Source: a bacterium (lineage in GTDB: Bacteria > Patescibacteriota > Saccharimonadia > Saccharimonadales > Saccharimonadaceae). From it: 38,845 nucleotides of DNA. Each line of letters opens with the position of its first letter. The stretch's first letter is position 1. Positions 26,307-38,602 of the stretch are shown here, piece by piece. The stretch covers positions 1-38,845 of the forward strand of contig JAJXYZ010000042.1 of NCBI GenBank assembly GCA_021780305.1, in the 5' to 3' direction. The translations under genes were made by a program, and so were the position numbers. Below the pieces are notes generated by a model. It saw only the letters and a list, made by a program, of their open reading frames with translations. It did no database searches and was not told the origin of the DNA.

Positions 26307-27218
26307 ATGGGGCTAACGATTAATCAAATAAGAGACAATACGACACGAGCTAGGCATTTAATGCAACGTAGTCGAGCACAAGGCTTTGCGGTCGGCGCAT
26401 TTAATATTGATAACCAGGAAACCCTTATTGCAATTGCACGGGCTGCTCAAAAGTTAAGCGCCCCTGTTCTAGTAGAAGTCAGCGACGGTGAAGTTAAAGC
26501 AATTGGACTAGAGAATATTCGAGACATGGTTGATAACTATCGGTTGCAGTATGGTATCGAGATGTATATAAATTTGGACCATAGTCCGACCGTTGAAGAT
26601 TGCAAGCGTGCGATCGATGTTGGTTTCGAATTTATCCATATCGACATCTCGCAGGCTTCACATGATGCTTCGACTGAAGACATTATTGCTAAAACTAAAG
26701 AAGTTGTGGACTATGCGCGTTTTACGGGGGCGCTTGTCGAGAGCGAACCGCACTATTTTGGCGGATCATCGAATCTTCATACTGAAACTATCGACTATGA
26801 AGAAATAAAAAAGACATTTAGTACACCGGAAGGCGCCAAGAGCTTTGTTGATGCCACCGGTATCGACACTTTTGCAGCCGCTGTTGGTAATTTGCATGGC
26901 AAATACCCAGTTCCTAAGCAACTTGACCTAGAGTTATTGCAGTCAATTCGTAACTCAATTGATTGCCAAATTAGTCTGCACGGCGGTAGCGATACGCCAC
27001 TTCATTACTTTGAAGAAGCTGCTAAAATTGGGGTCAGCAAGATAAATATCAACAGTGACATGCGTTACGCTTACCGTAAAGAACTTGAAAAAGTTTTAGC
27101 TGAAAATCCGGACGAATATGCTGTCGTAAAATTAATGCCACAAGTTTATGCAGCCGTTCAGGCGGTTGTTGAAGAAAAAATCCAAGCTTTTGGTAGCGCT
27201 AATCGGGCGGTTATGTAA
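26307..27218 (+). CDS. fba: Class II fructose/tagatose-bisphosphate aldolase
   Basis: 'GFAVGAFNIDNQE', 'NLDHS', 'HIDIS', 'AVGNLHG', 'LHGGSD' and 'KININSD'. These are the metal ligands and motifs of class II aldolases. Confidence 0.88.
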   Translation: MGLTINQIRDNTTRARHLMQRSRAQGFAVGAFNIDNQETLIAIARAAQKLSAPVLVEVSDGEVKAIGLENIRDMVDNYRLQYGIEMYINLDHSPTVEDCKRAIDVGFEFIHIDISQASHDASTEDIIAKTKEVVDYARFTGALVESEPHYFGGSSNLHTETIDYEEIKKTFSTPEGAKSFVDATGIDTFAAAVGNLHGKYPVPKQLDLELLQSIRNSIDCQISLHGGSDTPLHYFEEAAKIGVSKININSDMRYAYRKELEKVLAENPDEYAVVKLMPQVYAAVQAVVEEKIQAFGSANRAVM

Positions 27219-27219
27219 T

Positions 27220-28185
27220 ATGGCAATACCGGTGATTGTAACAATTGGCAAGGCGACACAGGATGTTTTTTTGCTAAGCTCAAAATCATTTGTTCCGCAA
27301 ATTCATAAGGGTGTTTTATATGAGCAGTTGCCGCTTGGTCAAAAGCTGGATTTAGACGAAGTTGTTTTTACAACCGGCGGAAATGTTACTAATGCTGCGG
27401 TAACTTTTGCTCGGCAGAGTCTGCACAGTCAATATGTCTGGGCGATTGGCACAGACGTGGCTAGCAAGACTATTCTAAGTGATTTAGATAGTGAGGGCGT
27501 TGATACGAGCTGTGTTGTTCAGGACGAATCATATCGGTCGAGCTACTCGGTAATTTTACTTGCCAGTAGTGGCGAGCGTACAATTCTAAACTACCATGGC
27601 ACAAAACTGTTAAGCGACGGTAGTTTACTTGATTTATCTGTTTTAAAAAAGGCTGACTGGGTATATTTATCAGCGTTAGGCGACATGGCGCTACTTGAAA
27701 TGATTATTAGCAGTTGTGTTGATCACGGTGTTAAAGTGATGCTAAATCCGGCAAGCTCGGAGTTGAATGAAATCGAAAAATTAAAAACTCTTTTAGAAGA
27801 TGTTGAAATTTTGATTGTCAATAAAGAAGAAGCTCAGCAGATTGTTGAAGGACAAACTATCGAAGAGCTAGCCCGACATGCGACTAATTATTGCCCTGTG
27901 GCTATTGTCTCGGATGGTCCCAACGGTGCGGTTGTAACCGACAAAAAGACGATAATAAATGTCGGTATGTATGAGGATGTGCCGGTGGTTGATCGCACTG
28001 GTGGTGGTGACGCTTTTGGTTCGGGCTTTTTAAGCTATTGGTCCCAGGGCAAATCGCTCAAGGAGTCGATTATTTTTGCAAGTGCCAATTCGACATCAGT
28101 GGTTGGTAAAATTGGCGCCAAAGCCGGCATTTTACAGCGCGGCGCAAAGCTTCACGATATGCCTTTAACAGAGGAAGATTTTTAA
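27220..28185 (+). CDS. PfkB-family carbohydrate/nucleoside kinase
   Basis: The ribokinase fold ends with 'DRTGGGDAFGSGFL' (PfkB signature 2). Start set to ATG 27220, 1 nt after the fba stop; the track start 27148 overlaps fba. Confidence 0.8.
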   Translation: MAIPVIVTIGKATQDVFLLSSKSFVPQIHKGVLYEQLPLGQKLDLDEVVFTTGGNVTNAAVTFARQSLHSQYVWAIGTDVASKTILSDLDSEGVDTSCVVQDESYRSSYSVILLASSGERTILNYHGTKLLSDGSLLDLSVLKKADWVYLSALGDMALLEMIISSCVDHGVKVMLNPASSELNEIEKLKTLLEDVEILIVNKEEAQQIVEGQTIEELARHATNYCPVAIVSDGPNGAVVTDKKTIINVGMYEDVPVVDRTGGGDAFGSGFLSYWSQGKSLKESIIFASANSTSVVGKIGAKAGILQRGAKLHDMPLTEEDF

Positions 28186-28188
28186 AAA

Positions 28189-29697
28189 ATGGCAAAGTTT
28201 TTACAGCAGTTATTAAAAATTAATGAGCCAACGTTTAGTGTTGGTATGTCTCAGCTCGAAAAAGCGACCGGTTCTAGCGGTGTTGATACCCGCTTAATTG
28301 CTGATATTACTCATAAGGCGCACGATATTATGAGGCATCTTGGGTTAGACCCGGCCGATAGTACGGGTCGCGAACTTTATCAAGCACTAGTTAGTAGCGT
28401 TAAGCGCGGGACTTTCGAGAAACTGTTAGTTAATGCTGACTACGTCATGATGTCATTTGTCGGTGAACCTGTCTCATTTAACTTGATAGACGTAATTGAG
28501 AATGCGCATCACGAACTGACGTTCGAGCAAAGAATAATGAGCCATGGCCAACGTAGCCTACGTGGCGAAATAGTGCAGCGTTACTTGCAACATTCTAGCG
28601 TTGACGAGAGTGTGACGCTTGATGTTGCTAGTGAAACCGGTCTACTGCCAGAGACCGATAAATTGTACAAAGAATCAGAAGCGATATTTAAAGAGTCTGC
28701 GTCAGACACGCCTAGTGTTTTAGCGATTGGCGATATCTTTACAGACGCTTTTATTAAATTACGTGAAGATAAGGCGCGAATTGATACAGACCCAGACGGC
28801 AGTAAACGTCTGAGTATGGAATTTGGCTCAAAACCACCATATGAACAAGTTGATATAGTTCAAGCAGTTGGGCCATCGCCTAATGCGGCGGTTTCACTTA
28901 GTCGATTAGGGCTTAGGGTCGGGCTATTAGCCTTTCTGGGTGATGATCAACCCGGCAAAGATTCACTCACTAAACTACAGTCCGAGGGCGTTGATACAAG
29001 TATTATGTCGATTAAGCAGGGCATGAAATCGAACTATTATTATGTTCTGCGCTATGGAGCTGACCGTACGATATTAGTCAAGAACGAAAATTACGACTAT
29101 GTCTGGCGTGAACCAAGAGAGGTACCGGATTGGATATATCTATCATTGATTAGCGCCGCGTCATGGCAGCTACACGAAGATTTGTTGACATATCTGGAAG
29201 CTCATCCAGCAACGAAATTAGCGTTTCAGCCTGGAACTTTCCATTTTGAATGGGGTATCGATAAGCTGAGTCGCGTCTATAAACGTAGTTATATTGTGGT
29301 AATGAACCGTGAAGAAGCTGCCTTAGTTACCGGTAAAACTACTGAATCGGTGCGTGATTTAGCGCTTGCTCTCCACGAATTAGGTCCGCAAATTGTCGTC
29401 ATTACCGACGGTCCGGCAGGCTCTTATGTGTCGGGCGATTATAAGTTTTTGTCGATGCCAAATTATCCCGACCCAGCACCACCATACGACCGTACTGGGG
29501 CGGGCGACGCCTTTGCTTCGACAATCGTAGCGGCTTTGGCTTTGGGCGAAAGTCTCGAGACGGCTATGACGTGGGCCCCAATAAATTCAATGAGTGTTGT
29601 CCAAAAGTTAGGTGCTCAGGCTGGTTTACTAAATGCTACAGAGCTGAAGTCATACCTAAACAAAGCCCCCGACGACTATAAGATTAAGGAGTTATAA
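28189..29697 (+). CDS. PfkB-family kinase fused to an unassigned ~175-aa N-terminal domain
   Basis: Residues ~176-502 have the PfkB fold ('VLAIGDIFTDAF', 'DRTGAGDAFAST'). Residues 1-175 carry no motif I can recognise. Confidence 0.75.
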   Translation: MAKFLQQLLKINEPTFSVGMSQLEKATGSSGVDTRLIADITHKAHDIMRHLGLDPADSTGRELYQALVSSVKRGTFEKLLVNADYVMMSFVGEPVSFNLIDVIENAHHELTFEQRIMSHGQRSLRGEIVQRYLQHSSVDESVTLDVASETGLLPETDKLYKESEAIFKESASDTPSVLAIGDIFTDAFIKLREDKARIDTDPDGSKRLSMEFGSKPPYEQVDIVQAVGPSPNAAVSLSRLGLRVGLLAFLGDDQPGKDSLTKLQSEGVDTSIMSIKQGMKSNYYYVLRYGADRTILVKNENYDYVWREPREVPDWIYLSLISAASWQLHEDLLTYLEAHPATKLAFQPGTFHFEWGIDKLSRVYKRSYIVVMNREEAALVTGKTTESVRDLALALHELGPQIVVITDGPAGSYVSGDYKFLSMPNYPDPAPPYDRTGAGDAFASTIVAALALGESLETAMTWAPINSMSVVQKLGAQAGLLNATELKSYLNKAPDDYKIKEL

Positions 29698-29699
29698 AA

Positions 29700-30308
29700 G
29701 TGAGATATCAAATTTGTGTTTCTGGAGCAGCATCGGGCAGTACAGTCCAAGCTGCCCATCAATTAGCCTTTGATCTTGGTAAAGCAGTCGCTTCACGCGG
29801 CAAGACATTGATGACTGGCGCAACTGTCGGTTTACCGTGGTATGCCGCCAAAGGTGCCTTTAGCGTTGAGGGAAAACGAGGCATGTCAGTTGGTTTTTCG
29901 CCGGCGACATCTTTTCGCGAGCACGTAACGGTTTATAAGTTGCCAACTGTTGAGTTTGACTACATTAACTTTACGAGTATGGAATACGTTGGTCGTGATG
30001 TTCACTTGGTTCGCAGTAGCGATGCTGTTATTACAGTTGGTGGTCGTATGGGTAGTTTGCACGAATTCGCGACAGCATTAGAGAGTAAGAAGGTTTGTGG
30101 TGTCCTGCTTGGCAGTGGCGGCCTGGCTGATTATATTCCAACCTTATTAAAAAATGTCGAAGCGCCCGGTGCCAATGAAGTTATTTATGATACCGACCCC
30201 GATCGCTTGGTTCAAAAGGTAATTGATGCTTTAGACAAAAAATATATCGGATTTGAATACTATCCCGATGACCGTCATATTTCTGAAAACCGGTCTGGGA
30301 ACGGCTGA
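29700..30308 (+). CDS. LOG/TIGR00725-like (SLOG Rossmannoid) protein
   Basis: GTG start 2 nt after the upstream stop. Has 'ICVSGAASG', 'LMTGATVG' and 'AVITVGGRMGSLHEF' (compare the LOG PGGxGTxxE motif). Confidence 0.55.
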   Translation: MRYQICVSGAASGSTVQAAHQLAFDLGKAVASRGKTLMTGATVGLPWYAAKGAFSVEGKRGMSVGFSPATSFREHVTVYKLPTVEFDYINFTSMEYVGRDVHLVRSSDAVITVGGRMGSLHEFATALESKKVCGVLLGSGGLADYIPTLLKNVEAPGANEVIYDTDPDRLVQKVIDALDKKYIGFEYYPDDRHISENRSGNG

Positions 30309-32564: not shown

Positions 32565-33797
32565 ATGGCATATCAACAACGACGCTTCGGCGGTTCTAGT
32601 AATTCACGTCCCAGCGGTGGAAGCCGCGGCGGCTCTTTTGGCGGTGCTCGTCGAGGCGGTGGTTCACGTGGACCAGCTAAGAAGTACATTCACCCAAGTA
32701 AATTCATCAACAAGGCAACCTCAAAGGCTGACGAAGTTGTCTATGAATCAACCAATAAGTTTATCGACTTCCCGTTCGGTAACCAACTTAGTAACAACAT
32801 TATTAAAAAAGGTTACGAAATCCCAAGTGCGATTCAGGACCAAGCGATTCCTCATATTCTTGAAGGTAAAGATGTTATTGGTCTAGCCAACACTGGTACC
32901 GGTAAAACAGCTGCCTTCTTACTTCCGATTATCGAACGTCAAACTGGTGTTAATCTACGCCCAAGCGTACTGATTATTGCCCCAACCCGCGAGCTTGCCC
33001 AGCAAATTGATGAAGAGTTCCGTGCTTTCGCACAGGGCCTTGATCTTTACTCAGCGCTTATTGTTGGTGGCGTTAGCGTCGATCGTCAAATCCGCGATTT
33101 GAAGCGTCGTCCACACTTTATCATTGGTACGCCAGGCCGCTTGAAGGATCTTATGAATCGTCGTTTGATTCGCCTTGATAGTGTCAATACTTTGGTGCTT
33201 GATGAGGCTGACCGCATGCTTGATATGGGCTTCTTGCCTGATATCCGTGCGATTGTTAACGAAATGCCGGTTGAACGTCAGACGCTATTTTTCAGCGCGA
33301 CAATTACGCCCGAGATTCAGATGTTAGTTAATACTTTCTTAAAGAATCCAGTTACAATATCGGTTCGAACTAGTGAAACTAACGAACACATCGAACAAAC
33401 TGTTATTGAAGCCCGTGACAAGAACCACAAAGTTGAGCTGTTAACTGAAATGCTTCGTGGCAAAGATTACGAAAAAGTTTTGGTCTTTGGTGAAACTAAA
33501 TTTGGCGTCCAACGCCTTAGCGACCACCTTGATAACAGTGGTATTCCATCAGTTGCGATTCATGGTAACAAGAATCAATCACAGCGCCAACGTGCTTTAA
33601 AGCAATTTAAAGACGAACGTGTCCGCGTGATGGTGGCAACCGATGTGGCGGCTCGTGGACTTGATATTCCAAACGTATCGCATGTTATTAACTTTGACAC
33701 TCCTCAAAACTACGAGGACTACATTCACCGCATCGGCCGAACCGGTCGAGCTGGCGCAAGTGGCAAAGCTCATACATTTATCGATATCCAGCGCTAA
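32565..33797 (+). CDS. DEAD-box ATP-dependent RNA helicase with N-terminal RGG-rich tail
   Basis: Q-motif 'PSAIQDQAIP', 'ANTGTGKTAAF', 'PTRELA', 'DEAD', 'SAT', 'ATDVAARGLD' and 'HRIGRTGRAG'. Confidence 0.93.
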   Translation: MAYQQRRFGGSSNSRPSGGSRGGSFGGARRGGGSRGPAKKYIHPSKFINKATSKADEVVYESTNKFIDFPFGNQLSNNIIKKGYEIPSAIQDQAIPHILEGKDVIGLANTGTGKTAAFLLPIIERQTGVNLRPSVLIIAPTRELAQQIDEEFRAFAQGLDLYSALIVGGVSVDRQIRDLKRRPHFIIGTPGRLKDLMNRRLIRLDSVNTLVLDEADRMLDMGFLPDIRAIVNEMPVERQTLFFSATITPEIQMLVNTFLKNPVTISVRTSETNEHIEQTVIEARDKNHKVELLTEMLRGKDYEKVLVFGETKFGVQRLSDHLDNSGIPSVAIHGNKNQSQRQRALKQFKDERVRVMVATDVAARGLDIPNVSHVINFDTPQNYEDYIHRIGRTGRAGASGKAHTFIDIQR

Positions 33798-33867: not shown

Positions 33868-33873
33868 AGAGTG

Positions 33874-34164
33874 ATGACAGATATATCGCGTGATGATGTG
33901 CAGCATCTTGCACAGCTAAGTAGTTTAGCGCTTAGTGACCAGGAAATTGATGATTTAAGAATTGATATCGGTAATATTTTAGGTTACATCAATCAGTTGA
34001 GTGAGCTTGATACCACTGGAGTTGAGCCAACTTATCAGGTGAGCGGTTTGGAAAATGTCTGGCGCGAGGATAAAATTGATGATTATGGCCTAGGTCGCGA
34101 TGAGTTGCTAGCACTAGCGCCTGAATCAGCTAATGGCCAAATTAAGGTGCCAAAGGTTTTATAA
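33874..34164 (+). CDS. gatC: Asp/Glu-tRNA(Asn/Gln) amidotransferase subunit C
   Basis: About 96 aa with 'VQHLAQLSSLALSDQE' and 'TTGVEPT', the typical GatC pattern. Immediately followed by gatA. Confidence 0.9.
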   Translation: MTDISRDDVQHLAQLSSLALSDQEIDDLRIDIGNILGYINQLSELDTTGVEPTYQVSGLENVWREDKIDDYGLGRDELLALAPESANGQIKVPKVL

Positions 34165-35535
34165 ATGACTAAAATTGCTGATTATATTTCAAAAAGTGCT
34201 CGTCAGAACGTTTTAGAGGCCATTAAAAGGGCTAACGATAAAAATGAGTATCACGCACTACTAAGTTTAACTGAAGCCCGCGCTCTAGAGCGAGCCGATG
34301 CGGTTGATCGTGGGGAAATTTCCGGTCGCCTAGCCGGTGTACCGTTTGTTGTTAAAGATAATTTTTTAGCGTTTGGAGCGCCGACCACGGCCGCTAGTCG
34401 AATGCTCGAGGGGTTTAAATCGCCCTTGCAGGCAACGGCCGTTGAAAAATTAGAAGCGGAAGGTGCGATTTGTATCGGTAAAGCTAACCTAGACGCCTTC
34501 GCTCACGGTGGCAGTACCGAAAACTCAGCTTTTGGGCCAACCTTAAATGCCTATGATAAAACTAAGGTTGCGGGTGGTAGTAGTGGTGGTTCGGCAGTTG
34601 TGACGGCGCTGGATATTGTGCCATTTGCGCTTGGTAGCGATACTGGCGGTTCGATTCGTCAACCAGCGAGTTTTAACGGTGTAGTTGGTGTCAAGCCGAC
34701 TTACGGTACAGTTAGTCGTTACGGCGTGGTGGCGATGGCCAGCAGCACAGATACCATTGGCTGTTTTGCGACCGACGCGGCAGATGCTGAGCTAATTATG
34801 GATATTATGGCTGGTAAAGATGACAAGGACATGACAACTTTGCCGAATTTCTTTGAGCCAACTGCTATAAAGTCCGGCCTTAAAATTGGCCTAATCAAAG
34901 ATACGATGACCGATGATGTGGATGCCGATGTCAGGCAGGTTACTAGTGACTACGTGGCGCGCTTAAAAGCAGCTGGTCACGAAGTTTCCGATGTGGCAAT
35001 GCCAATTGCGCAGCATGCCCTTGCGATGTACTACATCATCGTACCGGCTGAAGTCAGTAGTAACTTGGCAAGATATGACGGTATTCGCTACGGTCATCGG
35101 GCCGAGGGGGTGACCAGCCTAGCTCAACTATATGGTAAAAGCCGTGATGAAGGTTTTGTAACCGAAAACAAGCGACGTATCATGATTGGTAGCTATGTTT
35201 TGTCGAGCGGTTTCTTTGACGCTTACTATTTACAAGCCCAAAAGGCTCGTACGCTATTAATTAACGAATTTGATAAATTATTTGAAGAGTATGATGTATT
35301 AATTGGACCAACAACTCCGACACCGGCTTTTGGGTTGGGTGAGAACACCGCTGATCCAGTCAAGATGTATCTGGCTGATATTATGACCGTGCCGGCATCG
35401 CTCGCGGGCTTACCAGCGATTAGTGTACCTGCCGGCAAAAGCGCGACTGGTTTACCAATTGGTGTTCAATTAGTTGGCCCACGCCGAAGTGATGCTGATT
35501 TATTAGCCTTAGCAAAATCAATGGAGACTGCATAA
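34165..35535 (+). CDS. gatA: Asp/Glu-tRNA(Asn/Gln) amidotransferase subunit A
   Basis: Amidase signature 'GGSSGGSAVVTA...GSDTGGSIRQPASFNGVVGVKPTYG'. Confidence 0.95.
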   Translation: MTKIADYISKSARQNVLEAIKRANDKNEYHALLSLTEARALERADAVDRGEISGRLAGVPFVVKDNFLAFGAPTTAASRMLEGFKSPLQATAVEKLEAEGAICIGKANLDAFAHGGSTENSAFGPTLNAYDKTKVAGGSSGGSAVVTALDIVPFALGSDTGGSIRQPASFNGVVGVKPTYGTVSRYGVVAMASSTDTIGCFATDAADAELIMDIMAGKDDKDMTTLPNFFEPTAIKSGLKIGLIKDTMTDDVDADVRQVTSDYVARLKAAGHEVSDVAMPIAQHALAMYYIIVPAEVSSNLARYDGIRYGHRAEGVTSLAQLYGKSRDEGFVTENKRRIMIGSYVLSSGFFDAYYLQAQKARTLLINEFDKLFEEYDVLIGPTTPTPAFGLGENTADPVKMYLADIMTVPASLAGLPAISVPAGKSATGLPIGVQLVGPRRSDADLLALAKSMETA

Positions 35536-35951
35536 TGGACCAATCGATTATTTTTATGTTTGCCGCAATTATTATTGTCGGTGCGATGCTGTTTGGGATT
35601 ATTGGATTAACCAAGCAAGGCAAAAGATACTTAAATATCGACCAATATCGAATCAAGTGGATGGATATTGAACGTCGATTAAAGAGTGATGAGCCAAGTA
35701 GCTTTAAGTTGTGCGTTATGGATGCCGATAACTTGCTTGATAGAGCGCTTAAAGAACGTGGTTTTAAGGGACAGACAATGGGCGAGCGCATGCGCAGCGC
35801 TGCAAATAGTTTGTCAAATCGTAATGCTGTCTGGACGGCGCACAAGCTACGTAACCAAATTGCCCATGAAGACGTGTCTGTTAGTTACGACCAATCACGG
35901 ACGGCGCTGAGCGGCTTCAAACAAGCCTTAAAAGACCTAGGAGCCATCTAA
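35535..35951 (+). CDS. Membrane-anchored small protein with HEPN-like Rx4H motif (DUF4145-like), inserted in gatCAB
   Basis: 138 aa with an N-terminal TM (res 5-25). The helical C-domain carries 'DADNLLDRALKERG' and 'AHKLRNQIAHE' (R106-x4-H111, nt 35850-35867). Shares 1 nt with the gatA stop (TAATG) and 1 nt with the gatB start (TAATG). Confidence 0.55.
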   Translation: MDQSIIFMFAAIIIVGAMLFGIIGLTKQGKRYLNIDQYRIKWMDIERRLKSDEPSSFKLCVMDADNLLDRALKERGFKGQTMGERMRSAANSLSNRNAVWTAHKLRNQIAHEDVSVSYDQSRTALSGFKQALKDLGAI

Positions 35952-37402
35952 TGCTTACGCCTGAAATGCTCGAAAAATACGACATGACGATTGGTATTGA
36001 GTGTCATGTGCAGTTGGCGACGCTGACTAAATTGTTTAGTGGTGCTGATAACGATGCGCGCCAACAAGAGCCGAATACAGTTGTTAATCCAATTGACTTT
36101 GGTCTACCGGGTATGTTGCCGGTCTTAAATCACGAAGCTATTAATCTGGCTATTAAAGCCGGCAAGGCACTCGGCAGCGAAATTGCCAGAGTTAGTCGAT
36201 TTGATCGCAAACATTATTTTTATCCAGACTTGCCGAAAGGCTACCAGACGACTCAGATGTATCAACCAATTATAATTGGTGGTTTAGTTGAGGCGCCGCT
36301 TGAAGATGGTGGAGTTGTTAAAGTTCATTTGCATCACGCCCACCTGGAAGAAGATGCTGGCAAACTGACGCACAACTCAACTTATAGCTTGGTTGATCTT
36401 AATCGAGCAGGTACGCCACTAATTGAAATTGTGTCTGAGCCAGATATGCATAGTGCGGCCGAGGCGAAAGCTTACGCTACCGAACTTTATCGATTAATGA
36501 CTTATGCTGGTGTGACGCATGGTGATCTGTATCACGGCAATATGCGCTTTGACGTTAACATATCAATTGCCCTAAAAGGTGCGACCGAACTTGGCACACG
36601 AGCCGAAGTTAAAAACCTAAACTCGTTTAGAAGTGTTGAACGAGCGGCTGATTACGAATTTAGGCGTCAAGTGGAGCGACTTGAAAGTGGTGAGCGGATT
36701 GTTCAGGAAACTCGCGGCTGGGACGAAGCTAAACAAAAAACGACTAGCCAACGTAGTAAAGAGGACGCGCAGGACTATCGTTACATGCCCGACGCTGATA
36801 TTCCACCAATTGTTTTAACTGAGGATGAAATCGAGCGGGTTCAGGCAACGCTACCGGCTTTACCGTCGTTTTATCGAAATGCTTGGCAACCGCTTGGCCT
36901 CGATAGCACAGTGGTTAATGCGCTACTGGCTTCAAAGCAATTAGCTGAGGGTATTCAAGCGTTGTATGAAAAAGGTGGTGAAAGTGTAGCTAGACGTAAC
37001 GCGCAGTGGTTTATTAGCACGCTCGGATCTGATATTAATGAGTCAGCGATTGATTCACTACACTTATCGCCCGATCGCTTTATTGAACTTGCCAAAATGG
37101 TTGACGATAATCAATTATCAAGCACCGCGGCTAAGGCGGTTTTTGCCGAGCTACTGGCGGGCGATAAAAATCCAAAACAAATTGCTGAGGATTTAAACCT
37201 TCTACAGGTAAGCGATGAAGACTCGATTGCTAGTATTGTCGACGAAGTCCTAACAGACCCAGCTTCGGCTAAGGCGGTTGAAGATTTACGTAGCGGCAAC
37301 GATAAAGTAATCGGCTTTTTAGTTGGTCAAGTTATGAAAAAATCACAGGGCAAGGCCAATCCGGCATTGGCTCAGGATTTGATTCGGAAAAAAGTGCTTT
37401 AA
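35951..37402 (+). CDS. gatB: Asp/Glu-tRNA(Asn/Gln) amidotransferase subunit B
   Basis: 'IGIECHVQL', 'GLPGMLPVLN', 'KHYFYPDLPKGYQTTQ', 'EEDAGK', 'NRAGTPLIEIVSEPD' and a C-terminal YqeY-like domain. Confidence 0.95.
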   Translation: MLTPEMLEKYDMTIGIECHVQLATLTKLFSGADNDARQQEPNTVVNPIDFGLPGMLPVLNHEAINLAIKAGKALGSEIARVSRFDRKHYFYPDLPKGYQTTQMYQPIIIGGLVEAPLEDGGVVKVHLHHAHLEEDAGKLTHNSTYSLVDLNRAGTPLIEIVSEPDMHSAAEAKAYATELYRLMTYAGVTHGDLYHGNMRFDVNISIALKGATELGTRAEVKNLNSFRSVERAADYEFRRQVERLESGERIVQETRGWDEAKQKTTSQRSKEDAQDYRYMPDADIPPIVLTEDEIERVQATLPALPSFYRNAWQPLGLDSTVVNALLASKQLAEGIQALYEKGGESVARRNAQWFISTLGSDINESAIDSLHLSPDRFIELAKMVDDNQLSSTAAKAVFAELLAGDKNPKQIAEDLNLLQVSDEDSIASIVDEVLTDPASAKAVEDLRSGNDKVIGFLVGQVMKKSQGKANPALAQDLIRKKVL

Positions 37403-38344: not shown

Positions 38345-38602
38345 GTGAGTCCCGCAGCTGAAATCCTTGTCATTATTTTATCGATTTTTCTAGCGTTCTT
38401 CTTGGCGCTAGGTATAACTTTAGCGATATACTTAATTAAACTAACGCGCGATATTCGTGAGGTAACCAAGACGGCCGGCCGAACGGTTAGCAACCTTGAG
38501 GCAGCAATCGGCGGTGTTTCTAGAATGGTCCAACCGTTATTTTTGTTAGAGTTGGCCACGAAGTTCATGAAACGATTTAAAAATTCCAAGAGGAGGAAAT
38601 AG
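38345..38602 (+). CDS. Small membrane protein, DUF948-like
   Basis: GTG start with AAGGAG upstream. N-terminal TM plus a helical region. Directly precedes a YtxH gene, the usual DUF948-YtxH pairing. Confidence 0.45.
   Translation: MSPAAEILVIILSIFLAFFLALGITLAIYLIKLTRDIREVTKTAGRTVSNLEAAIGGVSRMVQPLFLLELATKFMKRFKNSKRRK

Follow-up and report, generated by a model that had tools for sequence, protein, structure and literature searches.

The window analysed here is the 38,845 nt contig JAJXYZ010000042.1 of a Saccharimonadaceae genome (GCA_021780305.1), and its gatCAB locus raises a simple question: what is an open reading frame (ORF) of 138 amino acids (aa) doing between gatA and gatB, the genes of the glutamyl/aspartyl-tRNA amidotransferase GatCAB? 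We refer to this gene (35535..35951, + strand, ATG start) and to its product as X. The analysis described below makes us confident that X is a HEPN-fold housekeeping membrane protein. Its role is harder to define. The reading we favour, at a probability of about 45%, is that X is a housekeeping factor which binds or cleaves RNA and acts in the GatCAB pathway; we infer RNA as its ligand, the cleavage, a tRNA target and the contact with GatCA alike.

X is a fixed element of the gatC-gatA operon

X overlaps both of its neighbours. The sequence TAATG at 35533-35537 contains the gatA stop codon TAA (35533-35535) and the X start codon, base 35535 being common to both, and a second TAATG at 35949-35953 contains the X stop codon and the gatB ATG (35951-35953), which have base 35951 in common. 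The three gat genes, all on the + strand, were assigned by NCBIfam equivalog models: gatC (33871..34164, 97 aa) by TIGR00135 (2.9e-24, above cut-off), gatA (34165..35535, 456 aa) by TIGR00132 (4.5e-162, well above cut-off), and gatB (35951..37402, 483 aa) by the GatB model NF004012 (2.5e-165, well above cut-off). A Shine-Dalgarno-like GGAG (35523..35526, +) lies within the 3′ end of gatA, 8 nt before the X ATG, and the Shine-Dalgarno sequence AGGAG (35939..35943, +) lies within the 3′ end of X, 7 nt before the gatB ATG. An earlier note on this DNA, made by a model from the letters alone, had described a 138-aa ORF sharing one nucleotide with each neighbour through TAATG. This description is correct, and the neighbours are true GatC, GatA and GatB.

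The arrangement was surveyed with one genome per GTDB species. A relative of X was found in at least 504 species genomes, and the best 80 of these at least 504 species were taken for the analysis of loci. In all 80, which were all Saccharibacteria, the order was gatC-gatA-X-gatB as far as the contigs reach. The gatA/X junction was a 1-nt overlap in 42 of the 80 loci and either an overlap or a gap of at most 3 nt in 74; the X/gatB junction was a 1-nt overlap in 53 of 79. The tight coupling of X to both neighbours, which the earlier note had seen in a single contig, is supported.

Eleven further contexts were inspected: eight belonging to relatives with approximately 33-45% identity, and three from sister-clade Saccharimonadales (P0384, P0401, P0457). 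Where a source name was given, the distant contexts came from Portnoybacteria, Parcubacteria or Paceibacterota; P0365 and P0346 were not assigned to a lineage. X was located directly or nearly directly 3′ of gatC-gatA in 11/11 contexts, and tblastn confirmed the upstream gene as GatA. In seven of the eight distant contexts there was no gatB in the flank that was read, the downstream gene being radical SAM, lgt, pheS or a gene for a PKD protein; in the eighth (L089) gatB followed one gene further downstream. The three sister-clade contexts had the order uvrB ... gatC-gatA-X-gatB-NUDIX-NTP_transferase-YtxH. Because the distant contexts keep gatC-gatA-X without gatB, the conserved partner of X is gatCA, not gatB. 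The gatC-gatA-X layout is ancestral to a large part of Patescibacteria. The earlier note had started from the canonical order, in which gatA is directly followed by gatB, and regarded X as an unexpected insertion. Neither view holds in this phylum, where gatC-gatA-X-gatB is the rule and the arrangement is ancestral and fixed.

Some variation was observed around X. In one Patescibacteria contig group lgt (prolipoprotein diacylglyceryl transferase) was found directly after X, in the place of gatB (L085:5510-6280, L086:2468-3238, L088:4456-5244 and L093:1699-2451), and the X stop and the lgt start sometimes overlap; lgt is a second membrane-related neighbour. Genes between gatA and X were seen at L088:3548-3997 and L089:3255-4004, encoding a basic 149-aa protein and a cyclophilin-type peptidyl-prolyl isomerase, respectively, and a gene for a 92-aa membrane protein separates X from gatB at L089:4456-4734. 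The operon evidently tolerates insertions at both the gatA/X and the X/gatB junctions.

X belongs to a large unnamed family

Homologue searches yielded 1450 relatives of X among 5.8 billion proteins. Nearly all were unnamed, and those with a name came from Candidatus Saccharibacteria or Saccharimonadales. A profile search of 1.84 billion representatives at 50% identity matched 2933 clusters at E≤1e-3 and 1755 clusters at E≤1e-10, and further searches returned 2655 matches and, with a profile built from representatives with a degenerate motif, 7012 matches. Judged by these searches, X is a real gene with thousands of homologues. The automatic JGI names of some homologues (‘transposase’, ‘ZipA’, ‘metal-dependent hydrolase’) were treated as spurious.

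Conservation was assessed in an alignment of 150 representatives of 50%-identity clusters and the window protein (151 sequences). It peaks in helix 2, in helix 3 and in the last four residues. The most conserved positions were D65 (151/151), G79 (149/151), H103 (146/151), W100 (144/151), R106 (142/151), N107 (140/151), H111 (139/151), D69 (138/151), W42 (136/151) and E112 (128/151), and position 73 was Lys or Arg in 121 of the 151.

The soluble domain has a HEPN-like fold

The structure of full-length X, predicted by AlphaFold2 (AF2) from an alignment of 25 sequences, had a mean predicted local distance difference test score (pLDDT) of 87.9 and a transmembrane (TM) helix comprising residues 2-26. 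For the soluble domain alone (residues 30-138, alignment of 52 sequences including distant members) the pLDDT was 95.0 and the predicted TM-score (pTM) 0.88. The domain (35637..35936, +) is a four-helix up-down bundle of two alpha-hairpins, as in HEPN domains of about 100-120 aa, made of H1 (residues 35-48), H2 (55-75), H3 (96-111) and H4 (118-134). Residues 76-95, between H2 and H3, hold a short helix (82-88), which corresponds to the HEPN-type insert. The published definition of the HEPN domain (PMC3710099) includes an Rx4-6H motif that closes helix 3 and whose Arg is followed by a polar residue, together with an acidic position on helix 2 and extra sequence separating H2 from H3. X agrees with this anatomy.

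Foldseek comparison of both models with the PDB gave HEPN proteins as nearly all of the top matches (TMq 0.55-0.69). They included AF0298 (2hsb, probability 1.00, TMq 0.65) and the HepT toxins 7ae6, 8yuf, 8xdj, 7bxo and 6m6w (TMq 0.56-0.69), as well as 1wty, 2q00, ST0689, TM0613, YutE, AbiV, Las1 (7y16), Csm6 and sacsin. The HEPN-like fold suggested by the earlier note is thereby supported. Foldseek against the viral BFVD library was uninformative. An independent assignment points in the same direction: Wang et al. 2023 used DPAM and placed the counterpart from Southlakia epibionticum (aa 26-135) in the ECOD domain e1wtyA1 with a score of 0.99. The main text of that paper has no mention of HEPN, and the fold assignment is an undiscussed row of a supplementary table. 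In the same work the language model ProtNLM named the protein ‘DUF4145 domain-containing protein’ (Wang et al. 2023), and no other source attached a DUF4145 label to the family.

The closer affiliation to DUF4145/Abi-type HEPN domains, which the earlier note had proposed, found no support in Pfam. DUF4145 (PF13643) was absent for the window protein at E≤10, and it was also absent among the 25 families listed of the 49 that 28 distant members matched at E≤1. When these 28 members were scanned individually, the only families matched by more than one of them were Swt1 (7), RiboL-PSP (5, best 6e-4), Cthe_2314 (4) and Ymh (2), all of the HEPN clan and all below gathering scores. Direct searches of X against Pfam, NCBIfam, PHROGs and PDB sequences gave no real match; weak matches to MerP and CopZ were judged to be due to chance. 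The X family is unnamed and lies outside every Pfam model at threshold; we file it as a new family of the HEPN superfamily, apart from DUF4145.

X carries an N-terminal membrane anchor and an invariant tail

The hydrophobic N-terminal segment IIFMFAAIIIVGAMLFGIIGL is worded as in the earlier note. The TM helix extends approximately from residue 5 to 25 (35547..35609, +), in agreement with the AF2 helix 2-26, and an N-terminal hydrophobic helix is present in 138 of the 150 family representatives. The description of X as a single N-terminal TM helix followed by a helical domain (approximately 105 aa) is confirmed by AF2 and by family conservation. The N-terminus MDQS is net negative, and the TM helix is followed by K27, K30 and R31. 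Because the positive charges follow the TM helix, the positive-inside rule predicts that the HEPN-like domain is cytoplasmic. In distant members, which have longer N-termini, the charge pattern is unchanged.

The other end of the protein is the tail K-D-L-G-A-I-COOH (35931..35948, +), which has the lowest column entropy of all segments. K-D-L-G-A-I is the end of the protein in most family members, and in the sister clade D134, G136 and A137 are each conserved in 120 of 120 sequences. The tail may act as a docking motif.

The Rx4H motif lies in a conserved stripe of helix 3

R106-N-Q-I-A-H111 (nt 35850-35867) is an exact Rx4H at the C-terminal end of helix 3, with the polar N107 after the Arg. 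The earlier note had recognized the motif, and its structural position proved to be HEPN-like. The Rx4H alone is weak evidence, since by our own estimate it would occur by chance in about 1 in 7 proteins of 138 aa. What raises the motif of X above chance is its conservation, together with its position where the third helix of a HEPN-like bundle ends. Both R106 and H111 were intact in 80/80 species orthologues of the window's clade. The motif forms part of a conserved stripe in helix 3, W100-x-A-H103-K-L-R106-N107-x-I-A-H111-E112 (35832..35870, +). The helical periodicity suggests that W100, H103, R106/N107 and A110/H111 share one face of helix 3 and form a single surface. A second, acidic stripe in helix 2 consists of D65, D69 and K73 (35727..35753, +); its D69x3K73 resembles the HEPN Ex3[KR] element (PMC3710099).

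The probable counterpart of X in Southlakia is depleted in Tn-seq

In Southlakia epibionticum the gene order is SEML1_0537 (GatC), SEML1_0536 (GatA), SEML1_0535 (‘hypothetical protein’, 420 nt) and SEML1_0534 (GatB). The identification of SEML1_0535 with X is based on where the gene lies, on its size and on the extent of its domain, not on a sequence comparison. A published transposon insertion sequencing (Tn-seq) study flagged it as a core family enriched in Patescibacteria. The Tn-seq calls were GD/GD/ES, the number of insertions fell from 8 in the input to 5, 3 and 1, and the normalised reads decreased from 126.6 to 5.9 and then to 2.8. We also considered whether X could replace a missing membrane RNase. 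This idea was rejected: Southlakia has RNase Y (Tn-seq NE/NE/GD), RNase J, RNase III and RNase P, therefore X fills no obvious RNase gap.

A proposed housekeeping RNA factor of the GatCAB pathway

In the favoured reading X is made from the gatC-gatA transcript, its translation being coupled to that of gatA and, in Saccharimonadia, to that of gatB as well. RNA would be bound at the inner face of the membrane by a conserved groove to which helix 2 (D65, D69, K73) and helix 3 (W100, H103, K104, R106, N107, H111) contribute, and in most lineages X would probably cut the RNA in the metal-independent manner of HEPN enzymes. The most plausible substrates would be tRNA-Gln and tRNA-Asn of the GatCAB pathway, with X possibly docked to GatCA. 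A more far-reaching proposal, which we consider quite unlikely, is that X is a phylum-specific fourth component of the transamidosome, tethering GatCA(B) to the membrane and binding or cleaving mischarged or unamidated tRNA-Gln or tRNA-Asn as a form of quality control. If true, X would be the first bacterial HEPN RNase with a housekeeping role in aminoacyl-tRNA synthesis.

Several observations weigh against the favoured reading, and the most serious one concerns H111. The profile derived from representatives with a degenerate motif led to a very large Saccharimonadales sister clade, for which 120 aligned sequences were counted. In 87 of the 120 H111 was replaced by Ser, Ala, Thr, Asn or Gln, the changed motif having the form WFGHKLR[NS]K[IL]E[SAT][DE]PE. 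The remainder of the site was preserved: W42, D65, G79, R85, W100, H103 and L105 were each found in 120/120 sequences, D69 in 119/120 and R106 in 108/120. An acidic residue occupied position 110 in 74 of the 87 sequences lacking H111 and in 3 of the 33 sequences possessing it (Fisher p=7e-15, uncorrected for phylogeny). The three sister-clade genes that were looked up (L090:3501-3929, L091:3501-3920, L092:3501-3923) were all positional orthologues of X. Because positional orthologues have lost H111, this residue is not required for the function common to all orthologues, and canonical His-dependent HEPN catalysis cannot be the universal function of X unless H103 or the acidic residue 110 substitutes. 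Binding may be the core function, with catalysis as an optional addition; alternatively, the chemistry may have been re-wired with H103 and/or E110 as the base. The earlier note had named a missing HEPN fold and lack of conservation of R106/H111 as grounds against its proposal. The conservation of R106/H111 held in the window's clade and in the family alignment, and failed for H111 in the sister clade; this bears on catalysis, and the fold is not affected.

Further points on the same side concern fold, synteny and fitness. All Foldseek E-values were ≥0.045, therefore the structural matches are fold-level evidence for HEPN, short of a proof of homology. The window protein matched no Pfam family at E≤10 and no HEPN family at the curated threshold, and a profile search of X against PDB sequences gave no match. 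Fusion of X with a Gat subunit was not found among the 150 best representatives. In the distant loci (L081-L086, L088, L089) ligA stands immediately upstream of gatC, so that ligA-gatC-gatA is also conserved. We know of no functional link between ligA and gatC-gatA, whose common neighbourhood is present in Firmicutes as well. The synteny of X is no proof of a functional link, because ligA-gatC-gatA persists without a known functional tie, and this weakens guilt by association. Finally, the depletion of SEML1_0535 mutants could be a polar effect on gatB.

Some of these observations would fit equally well with other functions. X could be a general membrane-associated housekeeping RNase or RNA-binding protein, engaged for example in rRNA or mRNA processing, whose position in the operon is frozen and has no specific relation to GatCAB. 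The HEPN fold and the conserved motif would be explained just as well, the persistence of ligA beside gatC-gatA offers a parallel, and housekeeping HEPN RNases do exist elsewhere, Las1 being among the structural matches (PMC3710099). We regard this explanation as rather doubtful, for X stays with gatA in 11/11 contexts in which the surrounding gene order varies (lgt, pheS, radical SAM, PKD), the gatA/X junctions are often overlapping or 1-2 nt, and Southlakia is already equipped with four RNases. Somewhat less probable still is a non-catalytic structural partner, either a membrane tether and fourth subunit of GatCA or a Csx28-like oligomer, without RNA chemistry. It would account for the dispensability of H111 in a large orthologous clade, for the invariant, docking-motif-like KDLGA[IL] tail and for the translational coupling, which is typical of stoichiometric partners. 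Non-catalytic HEPN domains are known (PMC3710099), and so is Csx28, a pore made of TM and HEPN parts (bioRxiv 10.1101/2021.11.02.466367). Outside the sister clade, however, R106, N107 and H111 are kept at 92-94% and H103, K104 and D65 at 88-100%, a pattern that one would sooner expect of a site for catalysis or ligand binding than of a mere scaffold. The acidic residue that usually appears beside the lost H111 suggests that the site is still under selection, and there is no CRISPR or Cas13 context.

Under the alternative raised in the earlier note, X would be a passenger of an essential operon: a toxin, a nuclease for abortive infection or defence, or an addiction module. This idea is largely refuted and we give it hardly any weight. 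In its favour, the prokaryotic HEPN proteins characterised so far act mostly as toxins or in defence (PMC3710099). The CARF-HEPN matches from PADLOC were no more than marginal (E 0.011 and 0.00098), and a foreign gene at the gatA/gatB junction has a precedent in Moraxella, where the bro beta-lactamase gene lies between gatA and gatB. X occupies the same place in at least 504 species genomes, and no MNT, antitoxin, CRISPR, restriction or other defence genes were found beside it in the loci examined. A tblastn search detected no match in 50,697 phage records or 72,556 plasmids, and in IMG/VR 0 of 123 pattern matches encode a relative of X. The Southlakia transposon mutants were depleted, not neutral. 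The median identity to the window copy over the 80 species, 56% for X versus 68-75% for GatC, GatA and GatB, is far above the expectation for a conflict gene. X is a vertically inherited core gene, and a mobile or defence insertion comparable to Moraxella bro was rejected in view of the phylum-wide fixation and the lack of phage, plasmid and viral copies. The reading as a housekeeping RNA factor of the GatCAB pathway, in line with the tRNA quality-control or tethering factor that the earlier note had suggested, remains the one we favour.

Comparison with known HEPN proteins and RNases

The best structural matches of X are the minimal HEPN domains HepT, AF0298 and 1wty (HEPN-MNT toxins, Pfam clan CL0291). 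They share with X the size of approximately 105 aa, the four-helix up-down bundle, the H2-H3 insert, the Rx4H ending helix 3, the polar residue after the Arg and the acidic residue of helix 2. X differs from them by lacking an MNT partner, by being neither mobile nor patchy in distribution and by its location in a core translation operon. It also has a membrane anchor, the additional invariant H103, W100 and a C-terminal tail, and shows no significant sequence-profile match to them. The membrane HEPN proteins described by Anantharaman et al. 2013 (TM + DUF4145-like; TM + Abi2/Swt1) resemble X in the combination of a single TM segment with a cytoplasmic HEPN domain and in the RNxxxH-type motif; a role in RNA processing on the cytoplasmic side of the membrane was predicted for them. 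Unlike X, these groups have a TM domain with a WP signature or an extra N-terminal globular domain, and no link to gatCA.

Csx28, the accessory protein of type VI-B2 CRISPR systems, is likewise small and joins an N-terminal TM helix to a HEPN-like domain that is divergent; it is a Cas13b-activated pore encoded in a defence locus, whereas X is a core gene without CRISPR context. Las1 (structural match 7y16) is, as we propose for X, a housekeeping HEPN nuclease, but it belongs to eukaryotes and has Grc3 as its partner. RNase Y, an endoribonuclease with housekeeping duties, is anchored to the membrane through a single N-terminal helix. It differs from X by its HD and KH domains, and Saccharibacteria already possess it. 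Among amidotransferase subunits, GatC and the fungal GatF are, like X, small and encoded with or assembled onto GatA/GatB (PMC4027206); they have no relation to X in sequence or fold, and none is known to be membrane-anchored or HEPN-like.

Literature searches on GatCAB and HEPN, on gatA/gatB of Saccharibacteria and on HEPN in the candidate phyla radiation returned no paper linking HEPN to GatCAB or describing the X family. Three features appear to be undescribed: the linkage to gatCA throughout Patescibacteria, a core gene that keeps the motif intact, and the exchange of H111 for E110. To our knowledge and according to a 2013 survey (PMC3710099), nearly all known HEPN domains of prokaryotes belong to toxins or immune effectors. 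X is passed on vertically and is probably required for fitness, in organisms whose genomes are among the smallest known. Its attachment to gatC-gatA has persisted in Patescibacteria lineages, Portnoybacteria, Parcubacteria and Paceibacterota among them, in which the identity to the window copy is only about 33-45%. It offers a testable lead to the function of a family classified as core, Patescibacteria-enriched and unknown, for which genetics exists in Southlakia epibionticum. The replacement of H111 by an acidic residue 110 within a set of orthologues amounts to a natural experiment on the plasticity of the HEPN active site. Should X act on tRNA or GatCAB, the indirect pathway of Gln- and Asn-tRNA formation would gain a further layer.

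Other features of the window

An antisense ORF of 141 aa (35420-35845, − strand) covers the end of gatA and most of X. It was dismissed as a gene because the + strand frame is conserved at the protein level in thousands of homologues, the homologues of the antisense ORF itself not having been searched; it is most likely a side effect of the coding sequence on the + strand. No match came from scans of the window with Rfam (gathering threshold) or for tRNA genes.

A DEAD-box RNA helicase gene (32565-33797, +) lies just 5′ of gatC, and its product has a Gly/Arg/Ser-rich N-terminal extension of approximately 40 aa (GGSSNSRPSGGSRGGSFGGARRGGGSRG). In many of the 80 Saccharibacteria loci, gatC is preceded by this helicase gene. 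Further upstream, a gene for a 202-aa protein (29700-30308, +) with a match to the Pfam SLOG cluster4 family (LDcluster4, 2.5e-25) adjoins genes for two pfkB-family kinases (27148-28185, 28189-29697) and a class II fructose-bisphosphate aldolase (26307-27218). On the other side of the operon, a hydrophobic ORF of 85 aa without a Pfam match (38345-38602, +) is located 3′ of the NTP-transferase gene; roughly this place is taken by a small ORF together with a gene for a YtxH-domain protein in Southlakia and in L091/L092.

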